A stretch of 64,000 bases of DNA, from NCBI RefSeq assembly GCF_038025025.1, contig NW_027117338.1:2914001-2978000 (forward strand). Direction: 5' to 3'. The notes beneath the pieces were generated by a model that saw only the letters and a list, made by a program, of their open reading frames with translations, was not told where the DNA came from and searched no databases. The translations under genes and the position numbers were made by a program. This document shows, piece after piece, positions 16,233-46,399 of this stretch. The stretch's first letter is position 1. Each line of letters begins with the position of its first letter. Origin of the DNA: Phyllosticta citribraziliensis. Lineage: Eukaryota.

Positions 16233-17281
16233 TCAAAGCTTGGACCTGCCGATTGGCGCCTCCACCGTCTTCTTGGTCTCGACTGGAGTCCACCAAGGAT
16301 ACGCTCCGGGGGCATTCGCTTCCAGCGTGTCCGTAAACTTTGGCGGCCTTTTTTCCAGAAAAGAATTGACGCCTTCCTTGTGATCGCTGCAATTATTTAG
16401 TATCCGGCTTCTCTCGGTTCTTGCGGAAACATACTTGCTGCTGAACAACTCGTTGATAATTTTCGACTCCAAGAGATGCTGCTCCTCAGCACTCCCCTTG
16501 TCCCGCCACATCAAATCCCTGATCAGCGCGATGCTCACAGTGCTGGTATTCTTGGCCACCTCATCGGCGAGCTCCAAGGCTCTCCTCTTGACATCCTCGC
16601 GCCGCTCACACGTCTCGCTGAACAGCGGGCCCCAGATCTTGTCGTCAGCGCGGTAAGTAGCTCCCGTCGTCGTCGTATGCAAGGCACGCGCAAAGCCGAT
16701 GAGCCGGGGCAAAAAAAACGACGAGCAGGCCTCCGTGATGATACCGCGCCGGGAGAAAACAAAGCCCACCTTTGCCGGTGCGTACGCGACACGGATGGCC
16801 ATGGGGAGCGTCATGGTGATGCCGATGCCTACGGCTGCTCCTTGGAGCGCGCCAATGACGGGCTTTCGACAGCGGTGGATTGCGAGAACTACACGGCCGC
16901 CGCTGGTGGAGACGCGCAGCAGTCAGTACGTTGAGAAGGAAGGAAGGGAGATGGGGAGCTGTCGTACCCATCCCTGTGGTCATTCACCCTCTCTGCGACG
17001 TCGCCAAATCCCTGTTCCAAATCTGCTCCTGCGCAGAATATGTTGCCATGACCTGTGACGACGATACATCTGACTCGGTCGTCCAGGTCAAAGAGTGGGA
17101 ACACTTGCTCCAACTCTTCCTGCATGGTTACTGTAAAAGCATTGTTCTTTCCCGGCCGATACAGTGTTACAATGATGACTGGAGTAGCTGTCGGCGAGTT
17201 CTCAGGATGATGCGACAGCTTTATTTCCTTGGTTGGGAGCGAGGCGTAGGAATCCGGTATGTTTACTTTAGATGTCGACAT
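16233..17281 (-). CDS. Enoyl-CoA hydratase/isomerase (crotonase family), predicted peroxisomal; exons 17281-16968, 16902-16435, 16386-16233
   Basis: [49 protein letters not shown]. Ends in RSKL, a canonical PTS1. Confidence 0.92.
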
Positions 17282-36744: not shown

Positions 36745-38072
36745 ATGGCTTTTCCACGCAACTCGCTGCGAAATTTTCTTGTCCACGCCAAAAAGGCATT
36801 GCGAACAGCCATTTCGAACAACGACAAGGTCACCTTTGCCATTGGCAACGAATCTGCTGGTAAGTTGTGACCGCGCACTGTCAGAGTCCAACCATCCACT
36901 GACTTGCGGCAGATTTGGACTCGTTGACATGCTCACTTCTGTTTGCCTACCTCCGCAGCCAACAGCCTCCCAAGCACGCCTTCACCCCTCTGTACATTCC
37001 CGTCACCAACATCCCCGCCAACGACATCCACTTGCGGCCAGAGTTCCTCGCATTGCTTCCACACGCCAATCTTGAACCCAGCCACCTCATCACACTGGAC
37101 GATCTTGCGCCTCTTGACAAATTGGACCAGAAGCTGAGCCCCAAGAAGACGCGATGGATACTTGTCGACCACAATGCATTGCAGGGCGTGCTGGGCCATG
37201 TGTATGGAGACAGGGTTGCGGGCTGCATCGACCACCACGACGATGAAAACAAGGTCCCCAAGGACACTGCGGATGAGCCACGCGTCATTGAAGTGAGCGG
37301 GAGCTGCACCAGTCTGGTTACGGAGTACATGCGGCCATTTTGGGACCATCTCTCATCTGAAGGACTGTCGTCTGGTGCAGCCCACGGGCAGAGTGACGGG
37401 AACGTGGTGGTGAATGATGCATATCAAATCAACCTTTGGGATGCCCAAGTGGCCAAGCTGGCTTTGGCGAGCGTGTTGATTGACACGAGCAATTTGCGGT
37501 CAACAACCAAAACCACGGATCACGACGTCAAAGCTGTCAAATACTTGGAGGCCAAGATAACGCTGCAGGATTCAAAGTTTGACAAGGACAAGCTCTTTGC
37601 AGAAATCAGCCATGCCAAGCAGGACATTGGAGGCATGAGGCTGTACGACATTCTCCGCAAGGACTACAAGCAATGGGACGATGACGGATTCCAGCTGGGC
37701 ATCAGTTCTTGCGTCAAGCCAGTCGAGTTTCTCCGCAGCAAAGTAAAGGAGGAGAGGGGAGACGAGCACTTGTTCTGGCAAGCCCTTGGTCGGTATACCG
37801 GAGACCGAGGGGTTGAGCTCTACTCGATCATGACGTCTTACTCAGACGAGAATGGAGAGCACCAGCGCCAACTTCTTCTCTGGGCTCTCTCTGAGAAGGG
37901 CAAGCGAGCAGCCGAGACGTTTGCAGAATCGGCAGCCGAAGAGCTTGGGCTGGAGGAGCTCGTCGGCGAGTGGGTGGCTGCAGACGTCGGCTGGAAAAAG
38001 GTGTGGCGGCAGAAGAACCTCGGCGCAAGTCGCAAGCAGGTGGCTCCATTGCTCAGGAAGACGGTGCAATAG
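36745..38072 (+). CDS. PPX1: Exopolyphosphatase (DHH/DHHA2, Ppx1/Prune family); exons 36745-36859, 36913-38072
   Basis: IGNESA-DLDS, LVDHN, GCIDHH, GSCTSLV, IDT, LRKDYK and SRKQVAPLL motifs. Confidence 0.93.
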
Positions 38073-39169
38073 CTAGAGGCAGCACAAGGCAGGCGACCCT
38101 ACACAAGGAGCGACGGCCCCAGAGCGCGGCTCTGAGATTAAGCTTGACGACGGCGTGGCACGCTACCTATTCGGGAAAGTGCAGACGTCGAGGATCCCCG
38201 CAGACACGTGTCTCCGGTGGACGTCTGGTCGACGGCGCGAAGCCCTAGTGTGTTGACGTGACATGTCTGGTTGTCGTAAGTAGGCGCTGCGGCGGCTTGA
38301 GAAAAAGCACTTGAGACGTGCAGACGCAGCGCATGAATCAGACGGACAGGCTGGCAGCGCGACAGAGTTTTTGGCTTGGTGACTTGTTAGCTGGAGGACA
38401 ATTGGCGATCAGAGTCAGTAACTAGTCGAGCGAGTACATCGGGCCGGAGCCGGTCAAGAAGCCTCACCGCAGGGCGGTTCTCGAAGCAGTCTCCCTGCGA
38501 CATCTCCACATTTATGAGCTGTATGGTGACGGGTCGGTCTCGACTCGGGTCTGAGATGATTTCAGTGAGTCAAGCCGCGTGGGCAGCTGGCGGTGCGTGG
38601 AGCCGTCGGCGGGAATTGGGCGCTGTTTTTGATGGAGTGTCGAGAGTTGCGGTCGTGCCGGAGAGCGTGTACAGCGCTGTTTGGACATTTCAGGTACAAG
38701 CTCTGGAGGTGGATAGGGTGTCCCTGATAGGCGGGAGCTGGGGTGTCGCGGTCAAGAGGCGAGCGAGATGGTAGCTTAAACCACGACGTCGGGGCGTTGG
38801 CCAAGCAACATGGACACGGCGAGAGGTCGAGTGGTGGTTGAGGAGGGCAGAAGTGATGCAGGGTACAGGTCACATCTAAGGCCAAGTAGTTAGTTAGTGT
38901 TTTTGCCACGAGAGGAGTCGGCGGATAAGCAGAGTGAGTCGGCTGAAGAGGGCGCAGGGTCGGGACAGGCGATTGGACGTCTGCAATGTGGATGCATTGA
39001 CAGCGCATCAGGGAGATCCACTCAGGTCGGTCGCTGGAGAGGAGAGTGAATGAGCGCAGCGAGATTGTCGGGGCTGCACGAGGCTGGAAAAAGAGGCACC
39101 ACGGCATCAGGTGGACTGCTGGTTGGCCAACTGATTGGGTGCGCCAGGGCGAGGGCGAGGGCCACGATG

Positions 39170-45107: not shown

Positions 45108-46399
45108 TTACGTAGGTGTGTATGTGATGCAGGTGTGCTGCGACATGAGGGGGGCACGGGGGGTGGGCTTTGCTGTTCTAATCGGGAGAAGAGAAGAAGG
45201 CGCTGCCGCGTTGGTTGTAATGCCGCCATTTGGGATCTGGAGCTTTGTTGAGCGCTCACCTTTGTTTACTCGTTTACTTCCGTTCTCTGTTTAGATTTTT
45301 TTTTTCCCTTCTACATCTTTTATATCCTTCCTCTTCTTCTTCTTCTAGTAGCCTGTCAGCAGATAGCCAGCCAGCCGCATAGCGAGCGAATGAATTGATG
45401 ACATTGATGAATCTATTGGTTGATTGGTTGATTTGTTGATTGAGTGTGTGGATGATGCTTGTGTGGCTTGTCGTTCCTCTATCTTCTCGTACCTAATTGA
45501 CCATGGTCTTACGGACGGTGACCATCATTCATCCATCTCAATCTCAATCTCAATCGTCATCAGGACTACGATCAACGAACGACGACGATGCTGACTGAGG
45601 GACTGACTGAATGACTACCTGAGATCGCTGGCCTGCTTACAGTGTTCGTTGCTGTGTATTGTACTACACTATACGAGCCGTTCCACCTATGTATGCATTC
45701 TTCACTTCCTCTTACTAGTGTTTGAGATAGGAAGTAGTAGGAGCCCAAGACATGTCCATCGTAAAGACGCACGTATAGACCCATCTTTATCAACAGCAGA
45801 AACAGTCCAAGATGTAGAGAAAAAGAAGACGAGAGCGCGTGTGTATGTGTATACATGCAGTATATTATAGTGTGGCGGAATAGGCAGATATTAAATCTAT
45901 AGCGACAAAGCAAAAATGGCGATAGTTTTGAGAATCGTACTTACTACTGCCTACATACTATACTCTCAGGTACAGGTGGCCGATTAAGTAATGATTCCTG
46001 GGGAATGCGAACAAGTATATCATCAACGACGCGCGCGCTATGCAAGAATGTACGTGTGTGCGAAACGAGGCCTAGAGCCGCCGCGTCGGTCGGAGGTACC
46101 GTCGAGTCCAGCGAAAGGGCGAGGCGATGGGAAGTTTTGGGCCGGCTTCAGGCAGCTTTCGACAGACAAAGTCGAGGTAAGCCGCAAGCGACCAGTCCCA
46201 CCGCCAGAGCGAGCGAGGGAGTGAGCATCGTCGCACAAGAAAAGCGCAGCGAGCATGATTAGCGTACGCTGCGGCTGCCATGCCATGGTGGAAGGTACGG
46301 TAGGTAGTTAGCGAGCTGAAATCAAACCGCCTCCCCCGGCTTGCTTGCTGGGGATGAGGGGGCCCACGCATGAATGACAGTGGCGATCAGTCCAACGAC

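Follow-up and report, generated by a model that had tools for sequence, protein, structure and literature searches.

A candidate readthrough-derived peroxisomal signal behind the PPX1 stop codon of Phyllosticta citribraziliensis, and a better supported counterpart in Pleosporineae

The window analysed here is a 64,000 nt stretch of DNA from Phyllosticta citribraziliensis (assembly GCF_038025025.1, contig NW_027117338.1, positions 2,914,001–2,978,000 of the forward strand). It carries PPX1, a gene for an exopolyphosphatase, whose stop codon is followed in frame by a short extension that ends in a tripeptide of the peroxisomal targeting signal type 1 (PTS1) kind. This raises the question of whether a fraction of Ppx1 is sent to peroxisomes by translational readthrough of the stop codon, as a first-pass annotation of the window had proposed. 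The answer differs between the gene family and the window species. For the family, there is good support that PPX1 can carry a cryptic peroxisomal signal, from its presence in Pleosporineae and from direct C-terminal PTS1s in other lineages, and to this extent the proposal gained ground. It lost ground in the window itself, where the stop codon is TAG and some related organisms have TAA or an altered tripeptide. That the window gene gives rise to a peroxisomal isoform by readthrough of its TAG is a tentative reading that falls a little short of an even chance, and selection for the arrangement is more doubtful still.

Positions 38067–38135 of the window read CAA TAG CTA GAG ... AGA GCG CGG CTC TGA, and GTG precedes the CAA. 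The first-pass annotation had given CAA TAG CTA G, 20 residues ending in R-ARL, and a TGA at 38133–38135, and its coordinates and peptide are exact on re-reading. The features of this segment are as follows, where X5, X8, X11 and X13 are contig sets from coded runs of related organisms:

38070..38072, plus strand: annotated PPX1 stop codon TAG, with CAA upstream; TAA in congener contigs X5 and X8, TAG in X13
38073..38076, plus strand: CTAG, a 3' context that favours readthrough, the motif being as in PMC4207609 and PMC4132726
38073..38132, plus strand: in-frame extension LEAAQGRRPYTRSDGPRARL of 20 sense codons, ending ...GPRARL
38124..38132, plus strand: GCG CGG CTC, encoding Ala-Arg-Leu, a PTS1-type tripeptide with Arg at position -4; 38125 is C>T in congeners X5 and X11
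38133..38135, plus strand: second in-frame stop codon TGA, directly after Ala-Arg-Leu

In yeast, A at positions -1 and -2 of the stop codon favours readthrough, and the codon before the PPX1 stop is CAA. Downstream of a stop codon, CUA(G) stimulates readthrough (PMC4207609, PMC4132726), and UGA-CUA alone gives 1.5% readthrough in human cells (PMC4132726). The first-pass annotation had described this context as readthrough-promoting and strongest with TGA, in agreement with both sources. The tripeptide ARL fits the consensus [SAC][KRH][LM], as had been pointed out, and it also fits the search pattern published in PMC4207609 ([ASTPCE]RL). The tail is hydrophilic and flexible and has Arg at -4, and by these published patterns its ARL is predicted to be a good PTS1.

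The gene upstream of this segment consists of two exons:

36745..36859, plus strand: PPX1 exon 1, with ATG start, 38 codons plus one base, ending ...GNESAG
36860..36912, plus strand: PPX1 intron of 53 nt, GTAAGT ... CAG
36913..38069, plus strand: PPX1 exon 2, with the DHH and DHHA2 domains, ending ...RKQVAPLLRKTVQ; the stop codon follows at 38070–38072

Removal of the intron joins GNESAG to DLDS and so rebuilds the DHH motif-I region, a conserved part of alignment A1. The two exons together have 424 codons, the length of the annotated protein P0001, and the product is 100% identical to this P. citribraziliensis protein, which ends ...LLRKTVQ at the TAG. Exon 2 matches DHHA2 (PF02833) with an E value of 1.8e-23. 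With exon 2 as the only query, the DHH domain (PF01368) is found with an E value of 6.7e-5 and 23.6 bits, which is under the Pfam cut-off of 28.1 bits; the precomputed domain listing of the full protein has both DHH and DHHA2. Among solved structures only yeast Ppx1 (2QB6) is matched at E ≤ 1e-5, with an E value of 1.7e-37 and residues 5–421 aligned to residues 5–390. Residues D39, D41, D124, H125, D145, H146 and H147 are invariant among the 36 sequences of alignment A1. On this homology the window gene is PPX1, the orthologue of the yeast exopolyphosphatase Ppx1, and the name is justified.

The strongest evidence for a cryptic signal in this family comes from a metagenome scan with the PPX1 alignment. 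The scan gave 80 loci, and the stop codon is readable in 73, of which 63 are distinct; in L024, L046, L071 and L077 the contig ends before the stop, and L070, L079 and L080 have no C-terminal match. A tree was made from 62 of the loci, with L069 (an ORF, or open reading frame, of 113 aa) left out, and from 46 named proteins. It has a clade of 32 rows with 100% support in the SH-like approximate likelihood-ratio test (SH-aLRT) that holds the named Pleosporineae, i.e., Alternaria, Pyrenophora, Parastagonospora, Phaeosphaeria, Plenodomus, Ascochyta and others. The stop codon is TGA, with CT directly after it (CTA, CTT, CTG or CTC), in every one of the 12 distinct loci of this clade, and 10 of the 12 have an in-frame extension of 7–9 codons with a PTS1-type end. 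The ends are SKL in five loci (L001, L003, L011, L015 and L043), GKL in three (L008, L009 and L014), SRL in L020 and ANL in L033. Of the remaining two, L012 has a one-base insertion that disrupts a ...DSK-L ending, and L002 is without a PTS1.

In these extensions the terminal Leu is encoded by CTC, CTG or TTG, Lys is replaced by Arg (AAG to AGA), and the conserved block is GAC AGC AAG CTN plus the stop codon. The second stop is TGA, TAA or TAG at one position, and length differences are in whole codons. This is a coding pattern that points to constraint at the amino acid level and not the pattern of an untranslated region (UTR). There are also two species of the clade in which a sense codon replaces the stop, so that the protein runs directly into the signal: Clathrospora elynae ends ...AEHAAQDSKL and Dothidotthia symphoricarpi ends ...SSGESRL. 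A third named species of the clade ends ...EQARDSKLS. Outside the clade, a stop codon followed by CT is present in only two of 51 distinct loci (L061 and L062), and a PTS1-like ending in L062 only (TGA CTA ...TARM, by the strict pattern only). As controls, the same loci supplied 70 further unique ORF ends (200 codons or more); one of these has a PTS1-like extension and none combines CT with a PTS1. The Pleosporineae PPX1 genes thus very probably carry a readthrough-derived cryptic PTS1, for which the case is convincing, and with them PPX1, as judged from sequence, joins the class of proteins with such signals. The check suggested in the first-pass annotation, an alignment of PPX1 3' flanks for stop-CTA and an in-frame SKL, ARL or SRL, has a positive outcome in this clade, in the form of TGA-CTN with SKL, SRL, GKL or ANL; within Phyllosticta such conservation is doubtful, as described below.

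Two observations were made on the same tree. Locus L057 is the sister of L062 and shares its 7-codon extension, with TGA CCG ...TAKT and no PTS1, a patchy distribution like that in Phyllosticta. The protein P0036, which bears the name Curvularia kusanoi, falls among Didymellaceae (Ascochyta, Boeremia) and not among Pleosporaceae (Alternaria, Pyrenophora); this record may be mislabelled or contaminated.

Signals that need no readthrough are also found in the family. From a library clustered at 50% identity, 150 PPX1 representatives were taken, and the C-terminus is readable in 142. A strict PTS1 is present at the C-terminus, a few residues beyond the conserved SRKQVAPLLR helix, in 10 of these 142 diverse representatives (7%), and in two of 121 control ORFs. 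Against a background of 1%, which is assumed and not measured, the binomial p is 2e-6. Among close PPX1 orthologues a direct PTS1 is present in 2 of 120. Examples of direct signals are Dichotomopilus funicola (...DGARL), Zalerion maritima (...DGSRL), Dipodascopsis tothii (...QAAKL) and Verticillium alfalfae (...ESPKL). Because these signals recur, PPX1 appears to have acquired peroxisomal signals repeatedly across Ascomycota. In addition, the PPX1 orthologues L044, L063 and L064 (40–42% identity to the query) end directly in ...SGRL. The tripeptide GRL is outside both PTS1 patterns but is similar to them, and may represent a further weak direct signal.

For the window species, the relevant comparison is with its congeners. 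Contigs of the four coded runs were aligned to window positions 37300–38700, with these results:

X5: about 95% identical, the whole stretch in one piece; stop TAA (38072 G>A); 38101 A>G changes Tyr to Cys and 38125 C>T changes Ala to Val, giving RVRL; no indel
X11: covers 38080–38289 only, so that the stop is outside; 38125 C>T as in X5; all gaps are beyond 38222
X13: about 91% identical; stop TAG; window letters at 38072, 38101 and 38125, the sites that vary in X5; first listed indel after 38148
X8: aligned to 38071; stop TAA; downstream letters unrelated to the window

In the extension, X13 was compared at the X5-variable positions only, from the differences listed. The position of the stop codon is kept in the congener contigs, as is the frame where it is visible; the identity of the stop and the residue at -3 vary. 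An annotated PPX1 protein of 424 aa is found in each of P. citricarpa, P. citrichinensis and P. citriasiana. In P. capitalensis (P0002) the protein has two more residues than in the window species, 426 aa with the end ...KTVQVQ, which is suggestive of a 6-nt GTGCAA repeat immediately before the stop. The tree places Phyllosticta among the Botryosphaeriales, a branch distant from the Pleosporineae clade and without any metagenome locus.

Several of these results, with others, weigh against a functional readthrough signal in the window. The stop is TAG, where the cryptic-PTS1 class has UGA. In human cells with the CUAG context, readthrough of UAG is about 3-fold and that of UAA about 6-fold below that of UGA (PMC4132726), and in Ustilago maydis UAG and UAA also show lower readthrough than UGA (PMC4207609). 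Among the congeners, TAA replaces TAG in X5 and X8, Ala to Val turns ARL into VRL in X5 and X11, and the flank of X8 diverges. Two of the three changes of X5 in the 66-nt stretch strike key positions, and these changes look more like neutral drift than the result of constraint. The annotated PPX1 proteins of Macrophomina, Lasiodiplodia, Diplodia, Aplosporella and Saccharata end in ...MR (...REKMR). RNA structure 3' of the PPX1 stop does not go beyond that of shuffled controls (z 0.16). The extension in the window has no similarity to the Pleosporineae extension past the first Leu. Since the two extensions are unrelated in sequence, the one in Phyllosticta would be of independent origin.

The explanation that best survives beside readthrough is neutral coincidence, which can be held to be a real possibility although not quite a probable one. 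It states that TAG-CTAG and ...ARL are ordinary 3' UTR sequence here, that any extended product would be too rare to be of consequence and unselected, and that the cryptic PTS1 of PPX1 is real in other lineages only. The changes in the congeners agree with it in that they fall precisely on the key positions, to the point that the flank of X8 cannot be aligned, as does the poorer readthrough of TAG and TAA. Chance levels are also relevant, and were determined from the 3273 stop-to-stop segments in all six frames of the window. An ending of the form [SAC][KRH][LM] is present in 16 segments (0.49%), and one that fits the broader published pattern in 36 (1.1%). The stop is followed by CT in 176 cases (5.4%), by CTA in 31 (0.95%) and by CTAG in eight (0.24%). 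Per stop, the two features are expected together with a frequency of about 4.6e-5 for CTA with a strict PTS1 and about 5.9e-4 for the loose combination of CT with either PTS1 pattern. At the loose level (about 6e-4 of stops), several cases per fungal genome are expected by chance, and the unlike endings of the sister loci L062 and L057 (TGA CTA ...ARM against TGA CCG ...AKT) are similarly patchy and possibly accidental. Of the 109 ORF ends in the window with 150 codons or more, that of PPX1 alone has a PTS1-like extension. This joint rarity speaks for a signal and against coincidence, but by itself it is not decisive, because a genome has about ten thousand genes and many windows were scanned.

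There are points on the other side. The match falls on a family with strong independent evidence for the acquisition of PTS1s, which is unlikely for a random match. Within the extension no indels are listed for X5, X11 or X13, the three runs that cover it, and the indels start 13 nt past its stop; this is a weak counter-hint, as only about 1.9 indels would be expected by our own estimate from the density of those listed downstream. Judging from plant PTS1s, Val at -3 may still permit weak import. A literature search for VRL as a PTS1 found no paper.

A different explanation would treat the conserved segment behind the Pleosporineae genes, and by extension that in the window, as a non-coding element of the 3' UTR, such as a binding site for protein or RNA or a polyadenylation signal. 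The shortness of the conserved block (GAC AGC AAG CTN plus stop) agrees with this. The substitutions described above are synonymous or conservative, however, with three stop codons at one position and indels of whole codons, TGA-CT is present in 12 of 12 loci, and the two species in which the stop has become a sense codon still read in frame into an SKL or SRL end. An element of this type is therefore very improbable. Least probable of all, to the point of being hardly credible, is an artefact of assembly or annotation in which the TAG is a sequencing error or an unannotated 3' intron is present and ARL belongs to an ordinary protein: no point in support of it was found, a stop (TAG or TAA) is present at the same position in three independent sets of congener contigs, four Phyllosticta species have an annotated protein of 424 aa, and inspection by eye shows no plausible pair of splice donor and acceptor sites around the stop.

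Two other ORFs of the window have one or the other of the two elements. The first-pass annotation had stated that none of the other stops checked has CTA after it. This is nearly right, as there is one more end of a long ORF with this context, a 209-codon ORF on the minus strand at 46310 that ends TAA CTAC; the extension of this putative gene end is without a PTS1. At 16233–16922 on the minus strand, an ORF of the enoyl-CoA hydratase/isomerase family (PF00378, E 1.9e-19) ends directly in ...GRSKL. It has an ordinary constitutive PTS1 and is likely an enzyme of peroxisomal beta-oxidation.

If readthrough does occur at the window PPX1, the arrangement would operate as follows. Most ribosomes would terminate at the TAG and produce cytosolic Ppx1. 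A small fraction, probably well under 1–2%, would decode the TAG by a near-cognate tRNA and add the extension. The extended isoform would be imported into peroxisomes by Pex5, where it would hydrolyze polyphosphate or a related phosphoanhydride substrate. The TAG-CTAG with 20 codons ending in Arg-Ala-Arg-Leu would then be an independent Phyllosticta instance of the PPX1 arrangement. An imported extended isoform at a sub-percent level is physically plausible in the window species; that readthrough and import do occur in this species is our inference, and selection for them is more doubtful. Inside fungal peroxisomes Ppx1 might act on polyphosphate or nucleoside tetraphosphates. Nucleoside polyphosphates are by-products of peroxisomal adenylate-forming enzymes, and as a Ppx1 substrate they are speculative. 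A more general proposal is that peroxisomal Ppx1 is a recurrent, selected ascomycete trait, reached by a constitutive PTS1, by UGA-CUN in Pleosporineae and by UAG-CUAG in Phyllosticta, and that peroxisomes hold a pool of polyphosphate or nucleoside polyphosphates that Ppx1 restrains. In this full form the proposal is unlikely.

So far, the peroxisomal isoforms known to arise by readthrough are mostly those of enzymes from glycolysis, redox shuttles and the pentose phosphate pathway. An exopolyphosphatase in this class would indicate a metabolism of phosphoanhydrides or polyphosphate in fungal peroxisomes, for which literature searches found no report. The first-pass annotation knew of no description of a peroxisomal Ppx1, and full-text searches, in which subscription papers were not covered, likewise found no paper that ties fungal Ppx1 to peroxisomes. 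Several plant pathogens that are amenable to genetics belong to the Pleosporineae (Parastagonospora, Pyrenophora, Alternaria), so that the prediction is directly testable there. A comparison of the firm TGA version in Pleosporineae with the unstable TAG or TAA version in Phyllosticta could reveal how such signals are born or lost.

Among known systems, the closest protein is Ppx1 of Saccharomyces cerevisiae (PDB 2QB6, 2QB7 and 2QB8), with which the window gene shares near-full-length homology, the DHH and DHHA2 domains and the invariant residues of the DHH family. Yeast Ppx1 is cytosolic and mitochondrial, and literature searches turned up no peroxisomal form.

The closest system in terms of signal is that of the fungal metabolic enzymes, for which readthrough-derived cryptic PTS1s were reportedly described by Freitag and colleagues in Nature in 2012. 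In U. maydis such signals are present in Tpi1, Pgk1, Rpe1 and Art1 (Stiebler et al. 2014, PMC4207609). The signature of the class is a UGA-CU core and a short extension, with some species having the PTS1 in the main ORF (PMC4207609); exopolyphosphatase is absent from the text of that paper and four of its supplementary files. The PPX1 loci of Pleosporineae match every sequence feature of this class (stop-CU, short extension, PTS1 and next stop). The window gene is alike in having stop-CTAG and an in-frame PTS1 tripeptide directly before the next stop. PPX1 differs in that it encodes an exopolyphosphatase and not an enzyme of central carbon metabolism, and the window copy differs further in its TAG, its 20-codon extension and its lack of conservation in congeners.

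In humans, LDHB and MDH1 have peroxisomal isoforms that are produced by readthrough of UGA-CUAG (PMC4359377, PMC4207609, PMC4132726), and for MDH1 readthrough was measured at about 4% (PMC5133446). These have in common with the window gene the CUAG context and the logic of dual targeting to cytosol and peroxisome by a low percentage of an extended isoform. They differ in that they are animal genes, that their stop is UGA and that their readthrough has been measured, whereas the window PPX1 is known from sequence.

The remaining comparison concerns polyphosphate itself. An acidocalcisomal exopolyphosphatase with a predicted PTS1 is tabulated in PMC7237986. The glycosomes of Trypanosoma brucei hold polyphosphate, and TbNH2 of this organism is a Nudix exopolyphosphatase with a PTS1-like tripeptide (PMC7005584, PMC6522730). 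TbNH2 belongs to the Nudix and not the DHH type, is from another kingdom and has a constitutive signal that requires no readthrough. It resembles the present proposal in that a peroxisome-related organelle contains both polyphosphate and an enzyme that degrades it, and provides a precedent for polyphosphate turnover in such an organelle. A peroxisomal Ppx1, if real, would imply a polyphosphate pool in fungal peroxisomes parallel to that of trypanosome glycosomes.

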